Translations under genes and position numbers: made by a program
The notes under the pieces: model-generated
What the model saw: the letters and a program-made list of their open reading frames with translations, nothing else
Databases searched by the model: none
What the model was told of the DNA's origin: nothing
Assembly (NCBI GenBank): GCA_000091205.1
Contig: AP006483.2
From: Cyanidioschyzon merolae
Lineage: Eukaryota
Strand: one strand, 5' to 3'
Length of the DNA stretch: 64,000 nt
Shown here: positions 23-54,420 of the stretch, in pieces
How positions within the stretch are numbered: the stretch's first letter is position 1
Layout: each line of letters begins with the position of its first letter

Positions 23-3000
23 TTCAACTCCTACAAGTCGCGATGCTTATTCTTGTCGGGAATTCTTTTAATGACCCATAATCTCGTTGGCGTTTCTTTT
101 TTTCATGGCTTTTTTTGTGGAATTTTTTTTACTAGGCGATTGCGGACTCTCGCTATCCAGTTATTTTGGAGCTGTGATCGATAGGCAACCGTGGTCACTT
201 GGAATCAACGCGAACTTTTGTTTGGATGCGACCCTAACTTTCGTAGCGATGCTGCAAACAAAACTCTAGCTTACTTGCACCTGTGCCCCTTACTATCAAC
301 CAAGTAATTATTTTTTGCAACTCCAGCATGTTTCAGTTCTTCACGATTACCACGCTCGAATTTGTTGGCTTACGTGTTTTTTTATCTCTTGGTTTTTTTT
401 CCTGGCCTCTCTTTGTCAACGACTGGTTATCTAGCCTTTCTTGTACTCCCGTTCGGGGATATGTCTTTGTGCTGATTTTCATCGAGGCGCTACGCATCCT
501 TACCCATGGGCTACGGCTCGTCACTAATTTTTTATCGATTAGGGTGCTGTGAAGCGATTGGTTTCGGTCTGTGTCTTTTTTCTTTTATTGTCATTGCCTG
601 GTGTGAGCCCTGTTTTTATTTCCGGGGCTGCAATGCCAAAGACAGCATTCGGCTTGGACGTTTTGGTTTATCTGTTGGCTTGCACCCAGCACGCTTTGGG
701 GCCCCGCCTGGAGAGCCCAGACTCCTCCGAGCACCCCCATGCTTTACGGGTTTGATGACTTTACCTTCCTATGACAATTCGTTATCTGGAACTGGCGATC
801 TCTTTGTTCGGTGCGTCCGTACACTTTTGTCGTTGCATGTTTTTGCGCCCAACATTTGGTGTTCGCAGCACTAAATATATGCATTTTTCTGTTGCAGATC
901 ATATCAAGCATGTCGTACGTTCCGCGGCGTATATTCAGTATAGAACGTCTTCTCATATTCATCATGGACTCCAACGCATTGCGCTCTCTTTAATGTTTCT
1001 GCGCAACAGTGTACGATTGCAGTGCTCTGCGGAACGATACTGCACTCGCGTGTACTACTTTGTTGTCCATTGGCTGCTATTGGAACTTTTACGTATGTCG
1101 CACTAGTGCAGGTATTGCATCGACTGCCATCGACTCACCGATGATCCATATTGCTTGTGTTCCGCTTTCCACATAATCTCCATCGTAGGCCTCTGGAATC
1201 TGCAAGAGGGACAAACTGTACCACCAGGTATCTTTTGCCTTTCGGGCTTCAGATGCCAATCTCTGGAATAGATATCGAATTCTTCGTGGGCTCCTACTCT
1301 ATTTGAGACTGTATATACTCAATAACATACTCTGTCACCCTTTTCATGGGCAAGATAACGCACACTACCATACCGCTTAGGAAAATGTGTGGCAGCAAAT
1401 ATGAGCGCCCAAATTCACAAATGAACATTCAGTACAGGCGTATACTTTCATTTGCTTGTCATGAAAGCCTTCATCACCATCGATGGATCTGCCTCCCTGG
1501 CCGCCGTTTCTCGAGAATCCGGAATCTTTGCTCTGATTCCGGTATCCTCTTCCAGAGATATCTCCATCTCTGCTGTCGAACTGGATCATCACCAGAACCT
1601 CCTTTACATCGCCAGACTGCAAGCTGCTATCCAAGTTTTTTCGTTTATGCTCGATGCCAGGCTGCTATCGCTGCACAAGATGCCTGATCATGCATTTTCA
1701 AGTGGCTACCGCTATCGATCCAACATCACCATTCCAACCATCATGAAGCAGACAGACAAGCTCTTTTGACCACTTTCAATATGCCAAGTCTATTGACTAT
1801 GACAAACTACTGCATTAGCGATCCATTCACCTCATCTGCAAGCACCTACTTCATGGCCGCCACGAATGAAGCGTAAATTTGCTGTTCCGCCCGTCCACGG
1901 CTGGTACTATCTTTCGGCTATCATCATGACACCCGCGGTATCCTTTCTGCCTAGGGTTGCATCTAAGTTCCGTCGCACCGGTGCTCGCAAGCGTGCCAGA
2001 GCCCAACGCACGCCATCCCTTGCGACGCATACTACCCGAAGAAATCAACTCTTGCACCGTCTACAACGAAGAGCCCCGATCACGCCGGCTATTCTTGCCT
2101 TCCGTCTACACTCAAAGCGATCCTGGTCGGCACTGCAGGGTCTCGCTAGTTCAGGTCAGCATCCAGGTTGGCGTCGCTTATTAAGATCATGTCTGCGAAA
2201 AGCACCTCAATCCTTTACACTATTAGTCGATAGCCCCCGCTAAGATATAGCTGCGATGTCCATCACATGACGAAGACTTCGGCAACTATGGAAATCGTGA
2301 AGCTTGAGATCTTTTTTATTCGTTACATCTTATTGTGCATCTCGGTTTTTTTCTTAACCGAAGGACAAGTGTCCATTCATCAGCAGTAGATTCAATCATA
2401 GGGTATCTCGCAACGAACTTGCACATAATCGATAGGTACGGTTACAGAAAGAAAGCTCTCAGGTTGCCTTCAATTCTAGTCGCCGTGCTGCGGTAACTTT
2501 CACTTTGGCTAGATTCGCCCCCTGGATCTCGCTGTGCGCTCTATCTTGCCTCTACGCTTTAGCACGCTTGCGGCATGTCCATGGTCTTACAGCGTACTTG
2601 CGCCCTCTGCTTGGAGTCATTTTCTCGACAACAAGCCCAAATCCGGGACTGCATCCCAACAGTGCGCTACAGTCGATTTTGTACACTTTTTGTCCAACAG
2701 ACAGCAGGTAAGAGTCTCAGAACTTCTGAGACGACCCTTCCGCATTTGGAGCAGGCAACATGCGCTTTCGATGCTAGAGCTGTACGTGCGCTGTGAGGCT
2801 GGTAGCTCTGCGACTTTCTTACTCAGCGACGCTGCTGCAGATGAAATGGATTCAGTGATATATACGCTTACCCTAGGAATACCGTATTCTGGTGAAATGT
2901 TCAGTTGCACGGATAGAATTGCACTTGCTCTGGAACTACTATTCGTGGGCAGAATCCATGCTAGTACACCAATCCTACAATGATTACATCCCTTTGCGTC

Positions 3001-3240
3001 GTCGCAGCAAAACTCACTAGTCGCTACCTGTGCACCGGGTTTCCAGGGCAACGAAGGCAAAGGTTTGCAACCCACCGACGTCGCCGTAAAAGCAATATTC
3101 ATAGGCACGCTCGTGCTCATAGGAAATCATTCCTCTACGTTCCGAGAGAGATTCCCAGTCCAGTCGTTCCATGTGTATCGCCTCTGAATCACGGCCCATG
3201 GGCAAGATTTCAGAGTGCTCTCCGCGCACATCTGTAGCCG

Positions 3241-8914: not shown

Positions 8915-9973
8915 TTAGACAGGGGCCAAGTAATTCGACTTGAGGCTTCGCCGCCGCAACGCCTGGTCGATCAGATCAAGACTCAGTTCGTAAAGCTGAT
9001 CTGCCTTGTCGATTTCGTATGTTGGTTCAATAACCTGCGGTTTCGTCTTCTCTCGACCTTCCGTATACTTGCCACGCCACTGATAATACGAGCCCGAGTC
9101 CGAGAACTGTCCCTGGGTCGCCACTTCGGCTACGCGGCGGCCGGCCTCATCATTCGGAACGTATTGCCGAGTGATGTACTTCTGAAGAATCGGGAAGAAT
9201 ACGTAGCGGAACCAGCCACGCTTTTCGCGGAAGAGGTTGCTGTCGGCGACACATCCCGGAAAAATCGCCACAGAGGTCACCCCGTCGCGGCCGTATCGAT
9301 CACTAAGCGCCTTCATTGTCAACACGTTCGCGGCTTTGGCGTCTTTGTAGGCTTTTGTGGGCTCAAACGGGCCACTGTCCACCATGCCCGTCGTCTGCGG
9401 ACCAAGCCCCGCGGCTAGACCAGACAAATCACCGAGACGAGCCTGCGGGGGGATCTTTCCCGGCAACGAATTCGGCGAATGGGTCTGAGTCGTCAGAAAC
9501 ACAATGCGCCCGCGCGATATTTTCAGCTTCGGCAACAGCTCCCGACATAGAAGCAAATGGCTCAGATGGCATACCTGCATGGTTTTCTCGATGCCGTCCA
9601 CCGTGAAACGCGGTTTCTTGTCCCGCGGATGCCATATTGCGGCATTGCAGATCAGGGCATCCAGGTGATCGACGCGCGCCACACTCGATAGCGCTCTCAC
9701 AAACTTCAACACAGAGGCGAAATCAGCCAGATCACAATGCAGCACTGTATAGGCGTCCTTTGGAAGGTTTACGCTGTTTGCTGCGCGCTCCGCCCGGTCG
9801 ACGTCACGACATGCCATGACGATGTGCCAGTTGCCCTTGTTGATCAGAGCGCGAGCTGCATACAGACCAACTCCAGAGCACGCGCCTGTGATCACGGCGA
9901 TCTGCGACTGTTTCGGGCCCATACGAAGATGCAGCATACGATGCCGGCGCGCTACAGGCGAACGCTGCACCAC
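8915..9973 (-). CDS. Light-dependent protochlorophyllide oxidoreductase-like short-chain dehydrogenase (POR family)
   Basis: 352 aa. VITGACSGVGLYAARAL (Rossmann TGxxxGxG). NKGNWHIVMACRDVDRAERAANSV...KDAYTVLHCDLADFASV closely parallels the POR consensus GKWHVIMACRD...KDSYTVMHLDLASLDSV. YKDAKAANVLTMKAL (catalytic YxxxK). The C-terminal FPGCVADSNLFREKRGWFRYVFFPILQKYITRQYVPNDEAGRRVAEV block also matches the POR consensus. Confidence 0.8.
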   Translation of the reverse strand: MVQRSPVARRHRMLHLRMGPKQSQIAVITGACSGVGLYAARALINKGNWHIVMACRDVDRAERAANSVNLPKDAYTVLHCDLADFASVLKFVRALSSVARVDHLDALICNAAIWHPRDKKPRFTVDGIEKTMQVCHLSHLLLCRELLPKLKISRGRIVFLTTQTHSPNSLPGKIPPQARLGDLSGLAAGLGPQTTGMVDSGPFEPTKAYKDAKAANVLTMKALSDRYGRDGVTSVAIFPGCVADSNLFREKRGWFRYVFFPILQKYITRQYVPNDEAGRRVAEVATQGQFSDSGSYYQWRGKYTEGREKTKPQVIEPTYEIDKADQLYELSLDLIDQALRRRSLKSNYLAPV

Positions 9974-11299
9974 CTAGGGCAGCGGATGCTGACAGTGGTG
10001 ACGGTATCGAGCTGCGAAGCACCCGTCACGTGCGGTACGCCGCGGGAACCGTGCACGAGTTGCAGCGCGCGCGCGCGAAAAATGTGTCTTTCCTAGTACA
10101 GCGGAACAGAAACGAAAAGAGCTTGCATTTTCTTGGGATAGATTCTCTCCGATGCGGAAGCTGTCGATCGTTTCAACAACAAGAAACGTTCGCTTAAGTA
10201 TGCGTATCCAGTCAAAAACCTCTTTTGCGTAGCGGCACGAGTGATCGCCCGTCAATTGCCCAGAGTCCGAGCTAAATCTCCCGTAGATTGTCTAGCGTTC
10301 AGCGCAACTAGCACAAGCGCTCAATGCCTTTTCAGAAACTAGGCAGAACTCCGACCATTTCGAACAACAACTTCACCAGTACGTAGTGCCAAGGGTTCCG
10401 CAGTGCGGCGCTCAGAGATCACAACGATCGTAAATGGACTTCACCACAGCTCTCCGACGAATACCGTAGAGGAGGCATAAGGAAATTTCCTACGGTGCTC
10501 TGTATTTTTTGCAAACGTCTGCACGTCAGTTGGAGACTTCATGTCTAGGGCAGGTCATTCGGCATTATTGTACACCGCGGGCGGCAGCGTTTTTTTCAAA
10601 GGCATTCGTTGTTCGCTTTGTCGCTTCCGGGCTCGATGTTCGGGTTAGGCTCTTGAAACTAATCTTATAGAGTAGATCAGAATACAGTATGTGCTTTTGG
10701 CGGATGCCTCGGTCAAACGGAATGCTAAGTATAGACACTCTATGTATGCGATGCCTCTACCAAGATCACCGGATCCGGGAGAGTAGCAAGCACCATAACT
10801 TGGACAATGACGATAGCATGCAAATGGCTTGAACTGCCATCAGTACCAGCCTATGACGCAGGATCGAAGCACAATTCAGGTCAGTTCCTCATTGCAGCGT
10901 CCGTGCGGCATGCATAACAAGCATCACGAACAAACGTATATACGAGTTCAGGAACACTAACGTACCTTGTGTGGTTACGATCAATAAAACGAACGAAATC
11001 CCTAACGAGAAGATTGATGCATACCTCATCCAGACAACCGTAAGCCGCAGAGAACGCTACGCTTTTGATAGAAGCGTCGAGGGGTTTCGTGCCAGGCCCA
11101 ACAGCTCCATGTATGTCAGGGCGGTGCTGCGATGGGCAGTTGCGTCGGCACCAGCGACATAACCTCTAGCAAGAGACTGCTCTACGTGAGTTTCCGATCT
11201 ACGACACTTGACTTCCGCTGCAGCGCGATGCGAACACGCATGTGCCAAGGCGGTGCGTGGGACACGTGTCTTTCATCAATCGGGGAGGCGTCTCGCGCG

Positions 11300-14000
11300 G
11301 TGCACGCATCGCGCCGGTGAGCGCACCTGGGAGATCGGGCAGGCATGAGACACGACGTGTATGTCGCCGTTGATGGGAAACGTGATCTCGTTCAGAAGCG
11401 TGTTGTTCAGCTGTAAAAAGCTTTATTTGCGTTGGGGTCATAGCCAAGTGTAGTTTTCAGTCCATTTGTGTTTCAAACTTCAAACAAGTCTAGTCAAGTG
11501 TTTTTTCCCAGCATATACCACAAGCGTCCAAAGAGCGTTCTTTTTCAAAAAAAATAGGAAAGCTATGAAAAAGCAAGTCCACGATCCTGGAGGTCCAGTG
11601 TCGCCGGCTGCCAGAAAAAACAAAAACAATACCGAGCCCAGAAGATAAAGTAGAGAAAAAGAAGCAAATGGGGGAGGCCCCACGTCGAAGGCGGCAAGAA
11701 AGACAACTGGACAACGAGATGGTGGTTAAAGGCTGTCTTCTTAAAAATATCAAAGATTCCTAGAGGGAAAAGTTGGTAGACGCTATCAAAACACGTGTCG
11801 ACTCGTACTCCAAGAGCATTTTCAAGGCGTCGTCAGGACCGATGCATTTGGCGGGGGAGATGTATCGCGACGTGACGCACATCGAAACGGTCGAGATTCC
11901 AGACGAGTTTTTCGACGTGACCTTTATTCGTCACCTGATGCTTGGTACAGAGGAAGCGCGGATGGAAAATGAGCGGGTGCACGCCCTCCACGAAAAATAT
12001 CCCTCTTACAGCTTCGCGGGTACTCGAAACAAGGGGGACTGGAGTATTTACGACTATGGGGCGATGAAGTACCTCACGAATCTGAAGCAACATTTGACAA
12101 CGAACCTCGAATGTTTCATGATACGCGCCGTGGTTGCACTCTACCCGGACATCTCTCGCAAAGGAAAATCGGCGATTATCAATGGCATCAAGAACGATCG
12201 CAAGCATGAAGATGAGATCGAATTCGTCGGAGAGAAGGCGACAAACGAGAGCACAAAAGAAGCTTCTGTGATCCGTAAGGCTAGAGAAGAGCACCGAGCA
12301 CTCTTGGGTTGGCGAATCCAACAGAAAAGATATCAGAGTTGAAAAAAGATAAGGAAAGATACTATCGCCTCGTCCTGCGCTATTTCGTGTTTTTGGATCG
12401 TGAACTCAAACGCAAGGCGGAGATGAAGCTGAGTGGGGAAAAAATGAAGAGTGCGAGAGACGGACGGCTCTCCTAATGGGGAAGCGCTTCAAACAGTGGT
12501 TCCGTTGTGGAACATCAAGTCACATTTTGTGACTATCGATTCCAGAATCCTTCACGGCATCATGAAGTAGAACCGTCCGGATTTCAGTGTCAGCAGAGAC
12601 GATTTCTCCGGTGAAAATCGGGAAACGTACTGGAAGAATATCTTCGTTTCCGAACGTCTCAAAGTGAGCAAACAAAAGGTATTTATTGGGATGATCGAAA
12701 CCTATGGAGTAGCCATGTGTGTACACGATCGGCGCTTGAAGACAGATCGGACAGTTTCGTCCTCGGCTTCGCCCGCGACGAAGGATGAAGATGAGAAGAA
12801 GGCGGATCTTGCGACGCAGAAAGTGCACGAGAACAACATTGTCGTTGGTGCGGACCCCGGAAACACAAATATCATAAATATCGCAGCACCCAAGGGTGCG
12901 GAAGATCGCAATGACGGCAACTTTCGTCGGAAACACATGCGCCTTTTGAGGTTCTCGAGAGCGAGACACTATCTAGAATCCGGTATAATGAAGGCAAGGA
13001 AGAGGATTGACACGTGGAATGCAGGAGTGAAGGATCAGTTGGAAGCTTTGAACAAGGTGACGAGCTGAGGAGCGGACTTTGAAGTTTTTTGAAATTCATG
13101 GAAGCTCACGTTGCTCATTGGGAGACACTGTGGAAAAAGTATACCAAGCCCCGATGGGCCCGTCTGCGCACGAGTCTATAATGCGTGAAGCAGCGTGCAT
13201 TTGACAACTTTTCCAATTATTTGAACGCCCTAAAAGAGGATGAGGGTCAGAAGCTCGTTGTAGCGTACGGAGCAGGGCGCTGGATGACCCAAAAAGCGAC
13301 TGCGCCAGCTCCGTCAGCATGAAAGAACAAGGTGTGCGCAAGGCGTTTTGTTCCGAAACCGATAGATGAGTTTCGAACACCGTATACACACCATGAACTA
13401 GGCTGTACACTTCAAAGGGTCGTGATGGAAAAGTGCCTGCGGAGCCCTGAGGGTACAAAAAGTACGGAGCGTTGACGGAACAGCAAATGGAAAGCGGGCG
13501 AAAGTTCGAGGAATGCTTGCACTAGTGAGTACCGTAAATAGCAAGGAACGTGTGGAGTTTGTGAACCGAGACTTTAACTCTGCCATCAATATCAGACGGT
13601 GTGCAGTGATGTGGAAGAAACTTCCAAAGTTGACAAGAGAGAATTTTGTTGGGCAAACTCTCAAACTCGGACTATATGAGAAAAGAATGGAACCAGTAGT
13701 AGGAGGCCGGCCGAGAGCCTGGGAGGCTTCTGCACGTCAGTTGGGAACGTCTTGTCCAGAACGGATTCCTCGCCACTACTGTACACCGCGGGCGTCGTTC
13801 GACTTTTGGAAAGTGTTCGGTGTCAGGGGTGCCCACTCTAGACAACAACGATCGCGTGAACAGTTCATGTCCGTTGTGCAAGCATGGAGTCGCTTCAAGA
13901 GCTGGGCGCTGGGCCCGACTGGCCTGAAAACAACGCACGCTTGGGGGCCTATCTCGAACGCTGGTTTACCTTTGGCAGGTTTCGCAGACATTACGAAACC
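11300..14000 (+). mobile_element. TnpB/Fanzor-like element, copy 1 (degenerate); boundaries approximate
   Basis: Nucleotide homology to the 51.8-54.4 kb copy begins upstream of the ORF (about 11.3-11.5 kb) and fades past the C-terminal coding region (about 13.8-14.0 kb). Flanks differ between copies. Confidence 0.6.
11773..13830 (+). pseudogene. TnpB/Fanzor-like RuvC nuclease, interrupted (ORF pieces 11773-12342, about 12350-12640 in another frame, 12664-13068, 13513-13830)
   Basis: RuvC-I-like [17 protein letters not shown] (about 12848-12895). RuvC-III-like [15 protein letters not shown] (about 13555-13600). 60-70% aa identity to copy 2 across the N-terminal (IPDEFFD.TFIRHL.LGT), middle and C-terminal segments. 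Frame breaks fall at different places than in copy 2. Confidence 0.65.
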
Positions 14001-14625
14001 CCCCGAGAGTATCAGCGAAAACATGACGGCCGCTATGTGCATCTATTCGCTTCTTTTCATGCGGTTCGCGTGGCGAGTACAGCCGCGGAACTATCTACTC
14101 TTCGCCGTTCACTTCAGCAACGAGCTGATTCAGGCTTACCACTTGCAACGTATTTTGGGAGGATACGACTTTTACGCCGGAAAGTACGCCACTGCAGAAC
14201 GGGCCAAGTCTGAGGCTGTTCCGTCACCGTCGTCGTAGAACTCCCTGCAGATCCCCCGGAAGCATTCCGTTGGTTACCGTCATAAGCGGACGTGTTGTTG
14301 CCATATGGGAGCGAGACGCGGTGTCGTAAGCCTTGACTTGAATCCGAAACTTCTTCGACTCTTGATAGCGCACGAAGGTATGGAGCACTGCTGAGTCGAG
14401 GCCGAGCACCGATGCGAAACCAGCTTTGCGTTCGATAACGCAGGGTCCGCGCATTGCGCTTCTATCCGAATAGGATCATTTCTTAAATTTTCCGGATACT
14501 TCTGCAGATGATGCAAAGCACCTGACAGGGACGCTCTCTTGCACGGCTAACGTACAATATCAGGATCGCAAAACGTTAGCAGCGTCATGCAGCATTCAGC
14601 CTTGCCCCGCGATCATTCAGCAGTC

Positions 14626-29079: not shown

Positions 29080-31449
29080 AGTGCCTCGATGCACCAGCCA
29101 TTCTCGACGTGAACGTCGTGCTCATCATTGGGGTCTTCGGCGTCGTACACGCCACCGTTGCTGCAACAATGAATGGCAACTCTACAGCGATCTAACGTTG
29201 AGGTTGCGCGTTCAAGTCTCGGCCTGGTGCAGAGCCCTGCAGACTCCCCCTGGAGGACTCTGTTTTTGGAGGCGTACATACAGGCAGGTTCACGCTCGTC
29301 GAGCATCCGGCACATTGCGCTTGGCACCCAGAGGGTACTGTTCGGTGGGGATCGGAAGCCTCACGGGCTATGTGGTGATCAGTGCGACAACGACGCCCTC
29401 GATGATGCCTGTAGCCAATGTCGCAGTGGCAGCAACAACAGTGGTACGCGTGATCCAGGAACAACGACGCGTTGCGGTAATTTTTAGAGTTCCCTCGGTA
29501 ACGTTTGCGCGGTATTGTGTTGGGAACTTCGCCCCGTTATCTGTGTTGAATTAGGCAGGCAGATTCCATGAGGCGACTCAAAGACCAAATGAGATTCCTG
29601 TTACATATATGTAGACGTTCTATGCGACCGAGGACGTGTGATCGTCACGGGTAGCGGACTCGGGGTGCTCTCGACATCATGCAGTGCCTGCCGAGATACT
29701 GCACTTCAGATAGGAGTCGTGGAACGTCTACCACAACCTCAGTCATATTCGAACACCATTCGCTATGCTATATGCGCTGTCCATACCATAGCTACCGAGA
29801 AAGCTCCTTGGTATCTGCAGGAGCTAGAGCCTCAACCCTAACAAAAAGTCCTACTGGATCGCCCGAAGATGACTGCGTAGTGCAGGAACACGTTTTCTTG
29901 TGCCGCTGGAGTGCGATAGCCCTAGATAGGCGGAACGTCGCCGTTTTGCTAGCTGTAAGTTCTGGTTACGCCGCTGGACCTAAATTTTTCGGGGAAATCG
30001 ACTGCTTCAAACTTCGTAACGATACGTTCTCGAGGTCCATGTTTACCAATCTGATCCATGCGTCCTTAAATGGCGTCAAAACGTGCCGTCTCTCGCAACG
30101 CGTCACCTGGATCCGTTTCGGAGACTTTAAGTGAACGTTTGCCTTGTCATAAACGGCTCTCCCCCAGTGCTCCATTCACCACTTGTTTCCCTCTAGGCAC
30201 TTGACACTGTCCGGCTGGGCAGGTACGTCGCACAACACCGACATGCTTGCAGGCCACGTACAGCAATTCGAGATAATTTTTATTCACCCCTGCTCTCTGG
30301 AATAGAAAGCTATTTCGCAGTGTTCAGCAGGTGATCGAAATCACGATACGATGCACTGCACTGATCGAAGACGAATTGTCTGTAGAGTATTTTATTTACT
30401 AAACATTGCAATCAGGACAACATTCCTGCTTCAAATCACCCATATCACAGTATTCAGATGGTTGTGGAACATTGAAAGCAAGAAGTATATGCGCTCCGTA
30501 ACAAGAACCAATATTCTTGAGTACTCTTTGCGGTCAATGGTAGAGAACGACCCGTTGATCACCCTAGGGAAAGCACGAGCGACGATGGTAGCCGGCATGG
30601 GCGTCTCAGTTTTCCAGCAGCTTGTTTGCGTGGTCCTGAAAACGCTGGGGTATAGTCGCAAAAAATGAGTCCTAGTTCAATGACGGCCACTGTCTACCGA
30701 AATCACATCTACAGCAAAGTTCCTGGAATCTCACTATCGGTCTGATGTACAGGGATGTCATTGTTTTCTACAGTCGATGAGACTTGCTTCGAATGAAACG
30801 GTCAGAGCTTATGTGGATATTTGCGGAGCAGGGAGCCCGTTGTTTGTACGATCGATTTCGAAGAGAGCGATCATATCGTTATTTGGTCAAGCTGCAGTGG
30901 ATTCAAGTGACGGCCTCAGTTTGGCTCGCAGAGGAGGCTCATACAGGAACACCATCCACTTTGTCGAATGGTTGAAGACTATCGCTTGGTGTCTGGCGAC
31001 GTGTTTCTATTGATCAGAGTGAGATTTCAGCATCCCCGTCGCGTTCGAGCCTTTGCGGATTGTATCGGGGTAGAGCTGCTTTTCATTCTTCCGTACACTC
31101 TATGATTCAACCGCATTGAAAGAGTGATTTTAACCTTGAAACGCAAATGTTCCACCACTGGGCGGATCTCGCGAAGCGATCAGCACACGGTGACATACCA
31201 GGGACACATATCGCCTTTCTTCTGATAGTGCGTCTCCCCGCGGGAAGTCTCTTCCCGAAGGCCGTAAATGAGAGCGTCCATTTGAGGAAATAAAAAATCC
31301 GAGGCAAGGTATGGACATGGAAGTCGAGGATCCCCGAGGGCCGTCAACGCCGGCTGCCCGACAAGAACAAATGAAAAAAAACAACATCTTCTCGCTGACC
31401 GTCGAGCGAAGGAGAGCAAGTGACTGAGGCGAATAAGAAGTAGAGGGCA

Positions 31450-31760
31450 GATAGGCGAGAAAATGTATTTGCCCAGCGGGACGATGACGAGACGCTGGTG
31501 GCACAGAGGCCATGAGTTCGAAGAATCCTTGCTTGCACTGGTGCTTCATCCAGAGGCAATAAACCTATGGTTTTCGTGAATCGTGACTTCAGAGCTGCCC
31601 TCAAACTGAGACGGTGTGCGGTACAGAGTACGAGACCCGATGAGCTGACGCGATCCAACTTCCTGGGGCAGCCTCTCAGGCTCGGAGTCTACGTGGAAAA
31701 ACTCAAATCGATAGCAGGAGGCAGGTCAAACAAGGCTGGAAGGCGTCTGGACACAGACAC
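31450..31760 (+). pseudogene. Fragment of a third TnpB/Fanzor-like copy (C-terminal RuvC-III region only, degenerate)
   Basis: MVFVNRDFRAALKLRRCAV...SNFLGQPLRLGVYVEKLKSIAGGRS parallels copy1 [18 protein letters not shown]...[25 protein letters not shown]. The preceding frame gives ESLLALV, matching RGLLALVST in copy 2. The NAAxNI motif has decayed to RAALKL. Confidence 0.6.
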
Positions 31761-31935: not shown

Positions 31936-33372
31936 ATGGGAAACGCTACAGCTCTATTCTACCTGGTATTTCTGGCCTGGATCCTGCTGCTTCATTTGCC
32001 GCTGTGGCTGCGCTTGTCACCACGTGAGGCGTCAGTATCAAGGGGGAACCTGACTGCGGAAGCGATCGAAACCCTCCAGTCGTACCTGCGCATCGACACT
32101 GCCCAGCCACAACCTCAGTACCGTAAGGCAGTTCGCTTCATCAAGCAGGCCTGCAAACGAGCTGGTCTTGAAGGTTTCCACCAGTTCTCGTTTCAGCGTG
32201 GTCGACTCGGGGCGGTCTGTAGTGTCCAGGGACGCGAGCCGCACCTTGGAGCGGTGGTGCTGAACTCGCACATTGACGTCGTGCCGGCCGAGTCGTCCGC
32301 CTGGCGCCTGGCGCCTCCTTTCTCAGCAGCTATTGTCGACGGAAACGTGGTCGCTAGGGGCTCACAAGATATGAAGACGCAAGGAGTGCAGTACCTGGAG
32401 GCGCTGCGTCGGCTACGCGCACAGGCCGGCGACAAGTGGCCTATGCGGCGAACGGTCCACGTGCTCTTTGTGCCGGATGAGGAGGTCGGTGGTCGCACGG
32501 GGATGGCTTCGCTGGTGAACTCCAGTCTATGGCGTGATACATTGCGCCCGGCAGTGCTGATCGACGAGTGTCTTCCCGAGACTCGCCTCGGTGTCTACAA
32601 AGTATGCTATGGCGAGAGACAGCCCTGGTGGATGACCATTCGAACGAGCCATCACACTGCGCATGGCGGAACGCTCCCCGCAGATACGGCGATTCAACGT
32701 CTTTTTGCGCTGTTAGACAACGTACTTGCGTATCGAGAGCAACAGCGCCTTGCTGTAGAGAGCCAGAGGAAAGCGCTGGGCGAGGTGCTTGGCGTCAATG
32801 TGGTCCACTGGGCCAGCAGCGGCAACGGGAACGCCACCAATGTCATCCCGAGTGATGCAGAAATCCGACTGGATATGCGCGTCCCGCCACATATGTCTGA
32901 ACTGGAGGTACTTGCGCTGTTAGAGGAGTGGACACGAGGCTCGTGCAACTGGCACTCGCACAACGGCGAACTTTTGTGTGCGAATGCTACGTACCGTATC
33001 CAGTTCATTGATCGAGTCATTGCACCGTATCGCGAAGTGGTTGACGAGGCCGAGTCTATGCTCTATCGGGCGATTGCCATCGCAGGAAGAGCACGAAACA
33101 TCAGTCTCGAACCGTTTGTGTTCCCCATGAGTACGGACTCGCGGTATGTGCGTCAGGCGGGTGTCCCAGCGTATGGTATCATGGCGCTGGACGGGGTCCT
33201 GCAGGGAGCGCAGTTACATCAGCCTGATGAGTCTGTGCCACTGACTGCGTTCGAGCGAGGTATTTCGTTTTACATGGAATTGGTGCGTCAACTCGCCGAG
33301 GAAGCGCACTGGGAAGCAACCGCAGACGTTGCGAACGTAACTGCCCGTCGGCATACTTCGGATGAACTGTAG
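31936..33372 (+). CDS. M20-family metallopeptidase, aminoacylase-1 type, with N-terminal signal/anchor
   Basis: 478 aa. VLNSHIDVVPA, ARGSQDMK, HVLFVPDEEVGG parallel the ACY1 consensus LLNSHTDVVP / ARGAQDMK / PDEEVGG. The hydrophobic N-terminus is MGNATALFYLVFLAWILLLHLPLWL. Confidence 0.8.
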   Translation: MGNATALFYLVFLAWILLLHLPLWLRLSPREASVSRGNLTAEAIETLQSYLRIDTAQPQPQYRKAVRFIKQACKRAGLEGFHQFSFQRGRLGAVCSVQGREPHLGAVVLNSHIDVVPAESSAWRLAPPFSAAIVDGNVVARGSQDMKTQGVQYLEALRRLRAQAGDKWPMRRTVHVLFVPDEEVGGRTGMASLVNSSLWRDTLRPAVLIDECLPETRLGVYKVCYGERQPWWMTIRTSHHTAHGGTLPADTAIQRLFALLDNVLAYREQQRLAVESQRKALGEVLGVNVVHWASSGNGNATNVIPSDAEIRLDMRVPPHMSELEVLALLEEWTRGSCNWHSHNGELLCANATYRIQFIDRVIAPYREVVDEAESMLYRAIAIAGRARNISLEPFVFPMSTDSRYVRQAGVPAYGIMALDGVLQGAQLHQPDESVPLTAFERGISFYMELVRQLAEEAHWEATADVANVTARRHTSDEL

Positions 33373-33446
33373 CAGTGGTGCGGCATCGACGTCGTCGGTC
33401 GCATTATGGTGCGGATGTCCCGAATATGATCTTGAGTACCGCATTC

Positions 33447-34497
33447 GCGGTAGTAGCGAATCGCGGAATATCAGTATCGTTCCTGCAACCATTGCCCAGC
33501 AAATCCTTCCCAGTGTACCAGTACGGCGCTGTCGCCTTGGTGCAATGCTGAACACCACCGTACCCGTGCCAGGCTCCAGGCGGGAATCCAATGCCGTCTA
33601 TCCCGGGGTACGGATTCATTGGCATCGAAAGCCTTGCACATCCCAGCACAATGCCAATAACGTGTACCAAACAATCACCTTAGACGCCCGCTCGAGACAC
33701 AGCCGCTGGACGCCCCGAATGCCCCAGACTCTTCTTCCGAATGGTGATCGAGGTGTCCAGGTCTCGGTTCAGAGCGAAAACACTGGCCGGCACGGCGGCT
33801 ACTGGCATCACACCCTAGCAAGCATCTCACCAGGTCGAGTCCGTCGGTACATGACACTCGATCAGCTTACCGTACACCACAGAGTGTACCGGGCTCCGTT
33901 CTATCCGCATCTTGTCAGCCTGATTCAACGAGAACTCATGCTCGTAATGCAGGTATGTCGCCCTGGAGGCATCCACGGGTGTCTAACAAGAATCAGTCGC
34001 TGCACTTATCGTCCGGTCTCGTCCACGAGACGCGAATGGAGGCCACGCGCACTGCAACCCGTGCACCGTCACAGGCTACGACTCACAGAGGCGTCTTGCT
34101 AGTCACTTGGCTTCGTGCCGCTCACGGAATAAGTTCGTGAATGCACGCTCCTCGCTGCCGTACACGAGACGCAGTCTAGGACTCCAGCACTCTATCATGT
34201 ACGCCTGTCCAGGGATCGTCCGCAGGAGCCTGCGGGACGCTGAGGCACGCGCTGAAGCGCGGAATCCCTCGCATCAGTCTTCGTGTTTTTCGGTGGCATT
34301 CCGGTGAGCGGACAGCGCCTACATCAGGCGCGCTCCACACGGACTCGGTTACTCTTCTGGGTTTCGACTCTCGTTAGAAACGCTTTGGAGCTTGCCTCGA
34401 GTGTGCTGCAATCATTAGCATCGCTACTCGACGCGCCACTGTATTCGGGATCAGCTGGGCAACGTCGTTCGACGTGTTGCCAGCGTACTGCATCTCC
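33447..34497. repeat. Direct repeat copy 1 (about 1.05 kb, about 99% identical to 39274-40327)
   Basis: Starts right after the aminoacylase stop codon. Identity begins at ...cgcgg[t/g]a[g/a]tagcgaatcgcggaatatcag and ends at ...gttgccagcgtactgcatc. Embedded ORF translations differ at about 7 of 210 codons. Confidence 0.85.
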
Positions 34498-38230: not shown

Positions 38231-39273
38231 ACGACTGCGGTTTTTGTCGGGCGTGGGTGCATACTGAGCTAGTGCGCAGGACAGCGTGCCGGCATGACGC
38301 TGCTTCCAAACTCGACGCTTGTCTCGTATAGTCGAAGATGCTGATCCGAACACTGGGCGTCCTATGGCTCCAATACGGGAACCAGATCGATTCGAATGCA
38401 CACGAAGGTGCTGCTGTGTGCACCAGAAGTTTCCCTCCTGCCAGCATGGGAAACGAGGATATGCTATTTAGCCTGATCATCGCGCAGAAGACATGCAGGG
38501 AGCATCACGCTCGACCGCAGATACCCAACTCCTACAGACAGACCGAACCAGGAAACAGTATGTGATTGCTGCTTCTTGGCACATGCAAGCGACGATGAGC
38601 ACGATAGCGCGACACGGGTCTTGGATTCTTTGGCACAGTGTGTGTCTCGCCAAGCTGTGTATCAGGCATTGGCAAAGCAGCAGTCACGCCAAAACCTGTG
38701 TCCCGAGTCACACTCTTGCGGCAGGTCGTGCTCGCGTAAACGGTTTCAGCTCTAACACGTTTCCGAAGTTGGAATCGTGGCAGATACGCATACTTGCAAA
38801 AACTTTCATCCATTGCGTCGCGCCTTGGTAAAGTAACGTAGCGTTGCTTTCGGTCCGAAAAAGCGCCGAGACGATGCCGTCGTCAAGACTCATACATCAT
38901 TCCAGAATATGATGCAGCGAGCGTGACTTGCCTCATTGCGCTGTGGATGGGTCATCAGTTAGCGCTGATCCACGTTCGGATGGAACCTAGAGAGGGCGCG
39001 TCGCGAGCGCAGCGCAGCCTGGGCGCCAGAGCCGCTGTCCAACACAAGGAGCGTGCAGCCTCGCTTGTATTGTCTCCTGAGAGATCTGCGATATGCGCAG
39101 CTCGCACGGCTCAACGATACAAGGCGCAAATATTAAGAGGAAAGAGCGAGCAGGTACAAAGCCCGTATCCGACAGCTACGGATTGTAGAGCGAAAAGATG
39201 GGATTCAAAAGGAAATTAAAAAAGAGAGATGTGTCGTTATAGAAAATATTCCGCAACCACGCCTCCATGCCTA

Positions 39274-40327
39274 TACGCGGGAATAGCGAATCGCGGAATA
39301 TCAGTATCGTTCCTGCAACCATTGCCCAGCAAATCCTTCCCAGTGTACCAGTACGGCGCTGTCGCCTTGGTGCAATGCTGAACACCACCGTACCCGTGCC
39401 AGGCTCCAGGCGGAAATCCAATGCCGTCTATCCCGGGGTACGGATTCATTGGCATCGAAAGCCTTGCGCATCCCAGCACAATGCCAATAACGTGTACCAA
39501 ACAATCACTTTAGACGCCCGCTCGAGACACAGCCGCTGGACGCCCCGAATGCCCCAGACTCTTCTTCCGAATGGTGATCGAGGTGTCCAGGTCTCGGTTC
39601 AGAGCGAAAACACTGGCCGGCACGGCGGCTACTGGCATCACACCCTAGCAAGCATCTCACCAGGTCGAGTCCGTCGGTACATGACACTCGATCAGCTTAC
39701 CGTACACCACAGAGTGTACCGGGCTCCGTTCTATCCGCATCTTGTCAGCCTGATTCAACGAGCACTCATGCTCGTAATGCAGGTATGTCGCCCTGGAGGC
39801 ATCCACGGGGGTCTAACAAGAATCAGTCGCTGCACTTATCGTCCGTTCTCGTCCACGGGACGCGAATGGAGGCCACGCGCACTGCAACCCGTGCACCGTC
39901 ACAGGCTACCACTCACAGAGGCGTCTTGCTAGTCATTTGGCTTCGTGCCGCTCACGGAATAAGTTCGTGAATGCACGCTCCTCGCTGCCGTACACGAGAC
40001 GCAGTCTAGGACTCCAGCACTCTATCATGTACGCCTGTCCAGGGATCGTCCGCAGGAGCCTGCGGGACGCTGACGCACGCGCTGAAGCGCGGAATCCCTC
40101 GCATCAGTCTTCGTGTTTTTCGGTGGCATTCCGGTGAGCGGACAGCGCCTACATCAGGCGCGCTCCACACGGACTCGGTTACTCTTCTGGGTTTCGACTC
40201 TCGTTAGAAACGCTTTGGAGCTTGCCTCGAGTGTGCTGCAATCATTAGCATCGCAACTCGACGCGCCACTGTATTCGGGATCAGCTGGGCAACGTCGTTC
40301 GACGTGTTGCCAGCGTACTGCATCGCT
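39274..40327. repeat. Direct repeat copy 2 (about 1.05 kb)
   Basis: See copy 1. There is a purine-rich stretch (aaaaggaaattaaaaaagagagatg) about 50 bp upstream. Confidence 0.85.
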
Positions 40328-51759: not shown

Positions 51760-54420
51760 TATCGTGACGTTGTCGAGCAGGCGTGCGCTGCGCCTCAGGG
51801 CGTGTGCTCCAGAGGCAACGCCAGTGCCGATTGGTGCCGGCGCACCGTATACCGCACTCAACTGAAGCGTGTTCCACACAAAGGTGTGTGGAAGTCGATG
51901 CTTTTTTCGTTGTATGTAGCAGACGCTATCGCAGGTCGTTCATTAGACGTGATAAAAAAATCTAAGGGAATGGTATGGGGGTGCTATGCGGAAATCCCGG
52001 AAGGCTTTCATTGCCGGGTTGAACAAAACTGGAAAGCCGTGCCGAGCATAGAGGAACGGGAAAGGACGATGCAGCAGAAGCAATCGCGCGAGGCCGGACG
52101 TTGAAAAGGATCTCGAAAGACGACAGTACGACGGGATGGTGGTGAAAGCCTCTTTTCTTGGCCATAGCTAGTATCCCTACAAAAAAAAGTTACGAGAAAC
52201 GATCAGAAACCTTGTCGAGTCGTATTCAATGAGTATTATTGAGGCTTCTTCGGGACTGGTGCATATGGCGAAGGAGATGTACGACAATGTGACGGACATT
52301 CGAAGAGTCAAGATTCCGGACGAGTTTTTCGACAAGACCTTTATTCGTCACCTTGTGCTTGGTACAGGGGATGCGCGGGGTGAAAATGAGCGGGTGCACG
52401 TCCTCCACGAAAACTTTGCAGAATTCCGCTTCGAGGGTAATCGATACAGGGGTGACGCGGATGCTTACATATACGGGGCGATGAAGTATCTCACGAATCT
52501 GAAGAACCATTTGACAATGAACGTCGAACGTTTCATGATACGCCCCGTGTTTGCACTTTACGCGGGCATCTCTCGCAAAGGAATATGGGCAATTATCAAT
52601 GGCTTTACAAACAATCCCCAGCATGAAGATGAGGTTGAATTCGTCGACAAGAAGGCGTCACACAGGAGAAGGAATGAAGCTTCTGTAATCCGTGCGCCTA
52701 CTAAAGAGCACCGCGCAGAATTGGGACTGGCGAATCCAGCAGAAAAGATATCAGAGTTGAAAACAGATACGGAAAGATACTAATATCTCATCCTGCGGTA
52801 TTTCGTGTTTTTGGACCGCGAGCTCGAACGCAAGGCGGAGATGATGCTAAGTGAGGAAAAAATGAAGTGCGGGAGAGACGGAAGGCTTTCCGAATGGGGG
52901 AGCGCTCCAACATCGTTCCGTTGTGCAACATCAAGTCACATTTTGTGCGTATTGATTCCGGCGTCCTTTACGGCATCATGAAGGGGATCTGTCCGGGGTT
53001 CGATGTAAGGAAGACAGAGTTCTCCGGTGAAACCCAGGAGACGTACTGGAAGAATATCTTCGATATCAAACGTCTCAAAGTGAGCAAGAAAAAGAAATTC
53101 ACTGGGATGATAGAAACTGATGGACTAGCCATATGTGTACACTATCGGCGGTTCAAGACAGATCGGCATGTTCCGTCTTCGGCTTTGCCCGAGACGAAGC
53201 ATGAAGATGAGAAGGAGGAGGATCCTGCGATGCAGAACGTGCAGAAGAACGACTTTTTCGTTGGCGCGGACCCCGGGAACACGAACATCGTAACCATCGC
53301 AGTACGCAGGCGTGCGGAAGATGGTACTGATGGTACCTTGCGTCGGAAAGAAATGCGTCTATTGAGATTCTCTAGAGCGAGATACGATCGAGAATGGGGA
53401 ATCATGAATGCGAGGAGGAAAATCGAGACTTGGAATGCAGGAGTGAAAGAGCACCTGGAAGCTATGAGCGAAGTGACGAGCCGCGAAGCAGACTTGAAAG
53501 CTTTTCGGGAGTCCATGGAAGTTCGCGTTGCGCATTGGGAGGCGCTGTGGGCGGCGGAGTATACAAAGCCCCGGTGGGCTCGTTTGCGAATGAATTTGTA
53601 TTTTGGGAAACAGCGTGCATTCGCGAATTTTTTTTCAATGAGTTGAGCGCCTTGAAGGAGGATGAAAGTCAGAGGCTCCTAGTAGCATACGGAGCAGGGC
53701 GATGGAAGATCCAAAAAGAAACTATGCCAGCTCCAACGACGAGAACATTCAAAGAGTGCGCAAGGCGCTTCGTTACGATACCTGTAGATGAGTTCCGAAT
53801 GTCCTACACACACCATGAACTGGGATGTACACTTCAGAACGTCGAGATGGAAAAGTGCCAGCGGAGCCCTGAGGAGGATATAGCAAAATATGGACCGCTG
53901 GCGGAAGAGCAAATGGAAAGGAGAGCGAAAGCTCGAGGACTACTTGCATTAGTAAGTACAACCAACGATGGCAAGAAACGGATGGAGTTTGTGAATCGAG
54001 ACTTGAACGCCGCGATCAATATACGGGGATGGGCGGTGATGGAGCATAAACCTCCAGACAGGACAAGAGTGAACTTTATCGGACAATCACTTCAAGTCGA
54101 ACTATATGAGAAAAAGTTGAAACCAGTAGTCGTTGGCCGGTCCAAAAAACTGGGAGGCGTCTGCACGTCACTTGGAGACTTCTTGTCTAGGGCAGGCTTC
54201 TCGCCACTATTGTACCACTGGCAGCAGCGTTTGTCTTTTGAAAGGCGTTTGTTGTTGGAGGTGGGCGTGAACGAAGGCCACTGTGAAAAGTCTGCGTCAA
54301 GTCGCTTTTTCTTTCGTACTCCCAGGCCTTCTGCAGCTGAGCAAACTACTGAACCGAGCGCTTAGGGCGACTCGGGTTTCTGTGAGAGGCAGCCCGCGGT
54401 TGGTATCATGGTGCGGCACA
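51760..54420 (+). mobile_element. TnpB/Fanzor-like element, copy 2 (more intact); boundaries approximate
   Basis: Homology with copy 1 starts in the GPAT9 5' flank (about 51.78-51.9 kb: ctgaagcgtgttccacac vs cagaagcgtgttgttcag). It runs past the end of the coding frame to about 54.3-54.4 kb (e.g. ctgggaggc[g/t]tctgcacgtca[c/g]ttgg...ctcgccacta[t/c]tgtac). Confidence 0.6.
52229..54365 (+). pseudogene. TnpB/Fanzor-like RuvC-family nuclease (IS605 OrfB/TnpB superfamily), about 700 codons across three frames; either disabled or intron-containing
   Basis: ORF pieces are 52229-52783, 52867-53646 and 53394-54365. RuvC-I-like [17 protein letters not shown] (about 53255-53305). A helical Arg-rich segment [16 protein letters not shown] Zn-finger-like PVDEFRMSYTHHELGCTLQNVEMEKCQRS. 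RuvC-III MEFVNRDLNAAINIRGWAV (about 53982-54038), i.e. the D-x-N-A-A-x-N-I hallmark. A TAA stop follows ...KTDTERY at 52781 (copy 1 reads ERYYRLVLRY through). Frame switches occur near 52905 and 53640. Confidence 0.65.

Follow-up and report, generated by a model that had tools for sequence, protein, structure and literature searches.

CMe-1A is the only Fanzor1 family listed for Cyanidioschyzon merolae (Bao & Jurka 2013, Mobile DNA 4:12, PMC3627910). Its consensus of 3169 bp contains an open reading frame (ORF) for a 734-aa Fanzor1 protein, and the genome holds about 150 copies, each roughly 80% identical to that consensus (PMC3627910). The family was described as having no terminal inverted repeats (TIRs), was assigned neither target-site duplications (TSDs) nor a transposable-element class, and its 5' 635 bp are a separate repeat, TE-N2_CMe (PMC3627910). 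Fanzor proteins have a rearranged catalytic site, with an inert Gly or Pro at the canonical RuvC-II position and an alternative Glu downstream (PMC10530073). Experimentally characterised Fanzor1 proteins include those of Spizellomyces punctatus (SpuFz1, 8gkh) and Parasitella parasitica (9cf0), and homologous RuvC nucleases are carried in bacteria as TnpB by IS200/IS605 elements such as ISDra2. Here we analysed a 64,000-nt stretch of C. merolae DNA (contig AP006483.2; hereafter the window), in which a first-pass annotation had proposed two decayed copies of a TnpB/Fanzor-like element, called copy 1 and copy 2 below. The two lie at different loci, as proposed, and both match the published CMe-1A consensus and belong to the CMe-1 repeat family at its level of roughly 80% similarity; the ~150 genome copies (PMC3627910) also bear out the claim that the family was mobile in this genome. 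We conclude that ~10646-13835 is very probably a full-length, thoroughly pseudogenised Fanzor1 member of CMe-1 and that another member, truncated at its 5' end, occupies an unrelated locus at 52021-54265. Both are thus pseudogenised copies from a family that has been on record since 2013.

Mapping and lesion calls used as reference the CMe-1A consensus from Additional file 2 of Bao & Jurka 2013, in which the ORF runs uninterrupted from position 906 to 3110. By blastn, window 11321-13794 in copy 1 corresponds to consensus 660-3145 (83.5% identity, 2491 columns) and window 52021-54247 in copy 2 to consensus 955-3169 (85.4% identity, 2233 columns). The two copies comprise the following parts and lesions.

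10646..11297, + strand: copy 1, alternative 5' module replacing the TE-N2_CMe part (77-83% identity to paralogous loci)
11298..13835, + strand: copy 1, core equivalent to consensus ~636-3169 plus a short 3' extension (blastn against the consensus, position mapping)
11565..13759, + strand: copy 1, remains of the 734-codon Fanzor1 ORF (codon-aware comparison with the consensus)
~11620, 12308, 12438, 12493, 13090, 13457, 13493, 13712: copy 1, eight frameshifting indels
11761, 12568, 13066, 13179, 13320: copy 1, five in-frame stops
12853, 13368, 13570: copy 1, catalytic codons kept (RuvC-I D, alternative RuvC-II E and RuvC-III D, respectively)
13786..13835, + strand: copy 1, 3' terminal region with degraded hairpin (per-copy folding, minimum free energy -1.9 kcal/mol)
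52021..54265, + strand: copy 2, equivalent to consensus 955-3169 plus a short extension (blastn against the consensus)
~52103, 52856, 53628, 54143, possibly 52017: copy 2, frameshifts
52169, 52781, possibly 52102: copy 2, stops
53269, 53790, 54000: copy 2, catalytic codons kept

Compared with the CMe-1A consensus from the same organism, the window copies show 83-85% collinear identity across the Fanzor ORF and 3' end, the 734-codon ORF layout, an absence of TIRs and a similar divergence level of ~80%. They differ in lacking the 635-bp TE-N2_CMe part: blastn found no match to consensus 1-635 anywhere in the window, copy 1 has another repeated module of ~650 bp, and copy 2 is truncated. A further difference is the real 3' end, which alignments of 56 3' ends place ~10-25 nt past that of the published consensus (...GAAAGRCGTTTGTTTYCAGGGGTG). 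Because the TE-N2_CMe 5' part is missing, the window copies are CMe-1 members of another subfamily or structure rather than of the 'A' consensus form. In copy 2, no recognisable sequence is found upstream of codon ~17, so that its 5' portion, with the start codon, has either been lost or can no longer be recognised; upstream of 52021, a weak similarity that stays collinear back to ~51903 was not significant in a shuffle test.

The homology between the two copies is collinear and extends well beyond shared motifs. In a blastn comparison of the window with itself, 11660-13831 and 52076-54263 aligned in the same (+) orientation across 2191 columns, of which 77.5% are identical (E = 0), and a pairwise MAFFT alignment showed unbroken similarity along this length. 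The first-pass annotation had expected collinear similarity over about 2.5 kb, which both alignments confirm over 2.2 kb, and its estimate of 60-70% amino-acid identity agrees with the 442 of 706 identical residues (62.6%) that we find after correction to the consensus reading frame, next to 77.8% identical nucleotides. Every peptide that it quoted was also recovered in three-frame translations, and the flanking genes do differ, with an SDR gene and a mitochondrial pyruvate carrier (MPC) gene at copy 1 and GPAT and Brf1 at copy 2. Relative to the CMe-1A consensus, ~65 derived substitutions are common to both copies, and ~240 are private to copy 1 and ~211 to copy 2. Third codon positions are moderately enriched in substitutions in both copies, with counts at positions 1/2/3 of 113/84/127 in copy 1 (p = 0.012) and 91/80/132 in copy 2 (p = 0.0006). 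Together, the common substitutions and the third-position enrichment suggest that part of the divergence predates insertion and arose under selection in an active lineage. The ~15% distance of both copies from the family consensus would accordingly reflect this active phase in part and later neutral decay for the most part.

Neither copy retains an uninterrupted ORF. The reading frame of copy 1 is broken by eight frameshifts and five stops, and copy 2 has lost its start and carries at least three frameshifts and at least two stops (three frameshifts and two stops are certain, with two further frameshifts near the ends). The C. merolae genome is very compact and has only ~27 introns. This scarcity of introns, together with the uninterrupted consensus ORF, indicates that the frame breaks are mutations and not introns. 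As the sequence stands, neither ORF can be translated, and both copies are probably now functionless fossils. Several of the lesions had been picked out by the first-pass annotation. Copy 1 does read on where copy 2 has ERY*, a TAT>TAA change at codon 268 of copy 2, and the frameshift reported after EHRALLGW is a 1-nt deletion at ~12308, following '...EHRALLG'. The internal stop 'GRLS*' near 12470 exists as well, but it is read out of frame after a 1-nt deletion at ~12438 and involves no nonsense substitution.

The deletion at ~12438 is the loss of one A from an A7 run at consensus position 1783, and the same A is also gone from copy 2. Related stretches in hot-spring metagenomes numbered 344, and eighty related loci (labelled L001 and so on) were fetched from metagenomes for comparison. 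In 60 other copies the run varies from A4 to A7 or is interrupted, with frequent losses of 1-2 nt, and in L053 (Ga0080006_1178247), which occupies the position of copy 1 in a related strain, it is A5, unlike in copy 1. The variation in run length across the family and the different run in L053 make the coincident loss a likely homoplasy at a slippage hotspot. By the same evidence, a lesion inherited from a common ancestor and a programmed slip were both rejected as explanations of the coincident frameshift. The proposal that the copies became pseudogenes after transposition, which had been argued from non-shared lesions, thus holds in that nearly all lesions are private, with the qualification that one frameshift, in the A7 run, coincides.

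The identity of the encoded protein is supported by its relatives. With the frame-corrected translation of copy 2 we found 80 homologues, most of them broken hot-spring metagenome ORFs at 55-78% identity, alongside some proteins of 650-700 aa that are intact and 30-40% identical. When 18 family proteins were combined into a profile, it matched the Fanzor1 structures 9cf0 (E 1.6e-15) and 8gkh (E 6.1e-14). Among the 18 aligned relatives the D of GADPG, the E of VDEF and the D of RD.NAA.NI are invariant, as is the Gly (AYGAG) at the canonical RuvC-II site, and both window copies have kept the three catalytic codons. By homology to established Fanzor1 proteins and by its rearranged RuvC triad, the predicted CMe-1 protein is a Fanzor1. 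It resembles SpuFz1 and Parasitella Fz1 in the profile matches (E 1e-14 to 1e-15), in the DPG-type Asp of RuvC-I, in the Gly at canonical RuvC-II with the alternative Glu in a D-E-F/Y-x-T context, and in the RD.NAA.N motif of RuvC-III. In contrast to these experimentally characterised proteins, CMe-1 has a putative guide RNA and a predicted cleavage activity, its identity to them is low and the match covers the C-terminal two thirds only, the zinc-finger cysteines are mostly missing from its clade, and the window copies are pseudogenes. With the bacterial TnpB of IS200/IS605, CMe-1 shares a homologous RuvC nuclease as accessory cargo, a carrier without TIRs, a terminal hairpin and a guide RNA that is expected to come from the 3' end. 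Unlike those elements, CMe-1 has no associated TnpA-like (Y1/HUH) or other transposase, and it has the rearranged catalytic Glu, a eukaryotic host, an N-terminus resembling a nuclear localisation signal (NLS) and variable 5' modules.

In its intact form the element codes for a 734-aa Fanzor1 protein whose N-terminus bears a basic NLS-like tract and whose RuvC domain has the rearranged triad. By analogy with the solved and tested Fanzor1 relatives, the ancestral protein would have been an RNA-guided endonuclease of double-stranded DNA, with a guide RNA transcribed from the 3' end of the element. The Fanzor1 is cargo of the element and not its transposase. Since Fanzor and TnpB are cargo nucleases, decay of the ORF says nothing about when mobility stopped.

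Several points weigh against this assignment or against the view that the copies are wholly inert. The C4 zinc finger between RuvC-II and RuvC-III, which belongs to the original Fanzor/TnpB motif, is degenerate in the CMe-1 clade, where it reads THHELGC...EKC (HH...C...C) with no second Cys pair. Scans with the local Pfam library gave no match for the reconstructed protein or its close relatives, and the sole Pfam-type match of the reconstructed protein is a weak precomputed hit to DUF8286; the Cas12f1-like TNB domain PF07282 scores only on the distant members P0077 and P0079. Family membership was settled by the PDB sequence profiles and the published consensus. Finally, copy 1 abuts the MPC start codon, so that its 3' end could have gained a cis-regulatory role.

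The boundaries of the elements were examined against the related loci. Many copies start at consensus ~640-690, like copy 1, and the sequence upstream of this point falls into at least four repeated classes. The ~650 bp upstream of the copy 1 core recur at 77-83% identity directly before the core in L029, L010, L031, L067 and L055, and L029 matches the window continuously over 10646-13822 with unrelated flanks. Since these upstream ~650 bp are a repeated module in paralogous loci, truncation of copy 1 at consensus 660 was rejected. Copy 1 is probably a full-length element of ~3.2 kb, ~10646-13835, from a subfamily with another 5' module. The left limit of the module is approximate, as its starts are staggered in other loci (window-equivalent 10646-10869). 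The extent of 11300-14000 given by the first-pass annotation covers the Fanzor core, but the start probably lies ~650 bp further left, at ~10646, and the end at ~13831-13840.

At the other side, the 3' end is the best-conserved non-coding part of the family. The corrected 3' ends in the window fall at ~13831-13840 for copy 1, ~30 bp short of the annotated MPC ATG at 13867, at ~54263 for copy 2 and at ~10613 for a solo fragment of another copy. Just before the 3' end, most copies have a terminal hairpin with subtype-specific stems, ACGUUUUUC-UUUU-GAAAGGCGU in subtype A and CGYCGUUCGA-CUU-UCGAACGGCG in subtype B. Its median energy is -8 kcal/mol, with z < -1.5 in 23 of 40 copies, and it is partly degraded in copy 2 and fully in copy 1. 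No global fold of the 3' ends was detected (RNAalifold on 40 3' ends gave -2.2 kcal/mol), an all-pairs covariation scan found no covariation-supported long helices in them, and the 3'-end RNA had no match in Rfam, which leaves the terminal hairpin as the one supported structure in this search for a guide (omega) RNA.

Consistent with PMC3627910, we found no TIRs in copy 1 or copy 2, and only chance 5-7-mers in place of TSDs in 10 full-length metagenome loci; the CMe-1 copies thus have neither hallmark of classical cut-and-paste transposition. One reading of these ends is that CMe-1 consists of a constant Fanzor core and a hairpin-ended 3' terminus joined to at least four 5' modules, and that mobilisation is defined by the 3' end, which we regard as rather unlikely. 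Under such a scheme, the staggered 5' starts and the lack of TIRs and TSDs would point to rolling-circle (HUH-like) mobilisation or to an RNA-mediated process with 5' truncation or template switching. If true, this mode would be one not described for Fanzor1 carriers.

The related loci show further features of the element. Immediately upstream of consensus position 1, the flank of full-length loci is T-rich in every case and TGATTTYTTT recurs (L008, L017, L032, L033, L047, L050, L077); this indicates either a preferred target or a published consensus that is slightly truncated at its 5' end too. In L013, L051, L054 and L062, two CMe-1 copies are arranged head to head with only ~15-25 bp between their 5' sides, and inverted TE-N2_CMe fragments occur ~140 bp upstream of many cores (L016, L023-25, L034-35, L039, L069, L083-84). 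Many CMe-1 copies contain one to four extra in-frame tandem units of consensus 2117-2196 (~80 bp, ~26 aa) just upstream of the RuvC-I motif (for example L001 7221-7376, L006 3775-4005 and L032 3648-3874), and the window copies carry a single unit.

Two related loci bear on the age of the insertions. L053 matches the window from 9277 to 13822 at 81% identity and shares with it the SDR gene (90% amino-acid identity), the solo 3' fragment (L053 1234-1329), the 5' module and the core. Because L053 has both the upstream flank and the element in common with the window, the insertion of copy 1 appears to be old. The match between L053 and the window breaks off precisely where the element ends on its 3' side, and MPC is absent beyond that point in L053; this may be due to a rearrangement at the repeat or to an assembly chimera. 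In L086, from a more distant related species, the GPAT-Brf1-Tsr1 synteny is kept with no trace of copy 2. A search for empty sites through these orthologous loci gave no junctions, as the flanks of L086 are too diverged and the downstream flank of L053 differs. Among the best 80 of the 344 stretches, metagenome copies are almost all broken, and open frames of more than 750 codons are present in 2 of 80 only.

Could the relics, although dead as nucleases, have been co-opted as promoters or 5' untranslated regions of the genes downstream? This is compatible with the two copies being pseudogenised CMe-1 members, and it draws on a third relic, an internally deleted copy, because all three CMe-1 3' ends face the next ATG from ~30-185 bp upstream (MPC at 13867, Brf1 at 54408, aminoacylase at 31936).

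31288..31752, + strand: internally deleted CMe-1 copy (blastn, 75% and 68% identity)
13835-13867: spacer from the copy 1 3' end to the MPC start codon
54265-54408: spacer from the copy 2 3' end to the Brf1 start codon
31752-31936: spacer from the internally deleted copy to the aminoacylase start codon

In a compact genome, however, short spacers place any tolerated insertion close to an ATG, three cases that all share one orientation carry little statistical weight, and the GPAT-Brf1 spacer of a related species has no trace of the element. The arrangement could be chance in a compact genome, or it could reflect promoter-proximal insertion or co-option; co-option itself we judge improbable.

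A second alternative is that the copies arose by segmental duplication of a single ancient insertion and not by independent transposition. The 65 derived substitutions and one frameshift position that they have in common would fit such an origin, and a recent duplication of 1 kb is indeed present in another part of the window (33443-34494 and 39273-40324). Against this, the homology ends with the element and the flanks are unrelated, the copies differ in 3'-end subtype and 5' structure, and the ~150 dispersed copies in the genome and hundreds in related metagenomes have many different flanks, which together leave a duplication very improbable. That both copies are live genes, in which introns, programmed frameshifting or RNA editing undo the apparent breaks, is the least credible alternative: a -1 shift would be needed at the same A-run (GAAAAAATGAAG) in both and each keeps its three catalytic codons, but the family consensus, the near-intact P0001 and the intact P0049 and P0052 read through every break point, the remaining seven frameshifts and five stops in copy 1 lie at other positions than the breaks in copy 2 and none of them has a GT...AG context, the A-run varies in length (A4-A7 or interrupted) and differs between copy 1 and L053, copy 2 has no start-codon region, and introns number only ~27 in the whole genome. 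Two pseudogenised CMe-1 insertions at unrelated loci thus remain the best explanation.

Besides copies 1 and 2, the window contains smaller relics of the family and the following annotated genes.

10516..10613, + strand: solo 3' end (~95 bp) of another CMe-1 copy (blastn, 81% identity)
13867-14238: MPC, 123 aa, identical to BAM78729.1
31936-33372: aminoacylase, identical to BAM78735.1
41551-44298, - strand: Tsr1, 915 aa, 100% identical to XP_005535023.1 (C. merolae 10D)

By these protein identities the window is part of chromosome 1 of C. merolae 10D. The solo fragment lies 33 bp upstream of the copy 1 5' module. By blastn its segment 10516-10603 corresponds to consensus 3078-3168, with ~10 nt more beyond, and similar sequence recurs at the 3' ends of both window copies and of dozens of metagenome copies. 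In the internally deleted copy, 31288-31371 and 31555-31752 correspond to consensus 888-966 and 2889-3086, so that the start-codon region is joined to the last ~200 bp. Family proteins match it in the C-terminal RuvC-III part (tblastn, E 1e-9 to 1e-11), and the aminoacylase gene begins 184 bp downstream of it in the same orientation.

A different kind of relic is found in a 1052-bp direct repeat, 98.7% identical between its units at 33443-34494 and 39273-40324, which are 5.8 kb apart. On the - strand the repeat carries a heavily decayed Fanzor-like relic, extending to ~34787 in the first unit, with ~30% amino-acid identity to P0049, 22-24% to the CMe-1-like P0001 and a RuvC-III-like 'FALNRDLDTSITIRK'. 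The relics at 33.4-34.8 kb and 39.3-40.3 kb may represent a second, divergent Fanzor lineage; the 2013 survey has a single Fanzor family for C. merolae.

The un-annotated spacers of C. merolae chromosome 1 are thus filled with fossils of one high-copy Fanzor family already on record. The biological weight of this is small and its practical use lies in annotation, where these spacers should be treated as CMe-1 remnants and masked. A few points go a little further than the literature, namely the alternative 5' modules, the conserved hairpin at the 3' end, a published consensus that stops slightly short of that end, and the putative second, divergent Fanzor relic; these could help in studying how a Fanzor carrier moves and in reconstructing an active red-algal Fanzor1. 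For annotation, one ORF is also of note: at 13513-14238 the frame of the last stretch of copy 1 runs on into MPC. Gene callers applied to metagenomes list the resulting 241-aa product as a 'hypothetical protein' (P0219); the curated C. merolae protein is the 123-aa MPC that starts at 13867, and the longer ORF is an annotation artefact.

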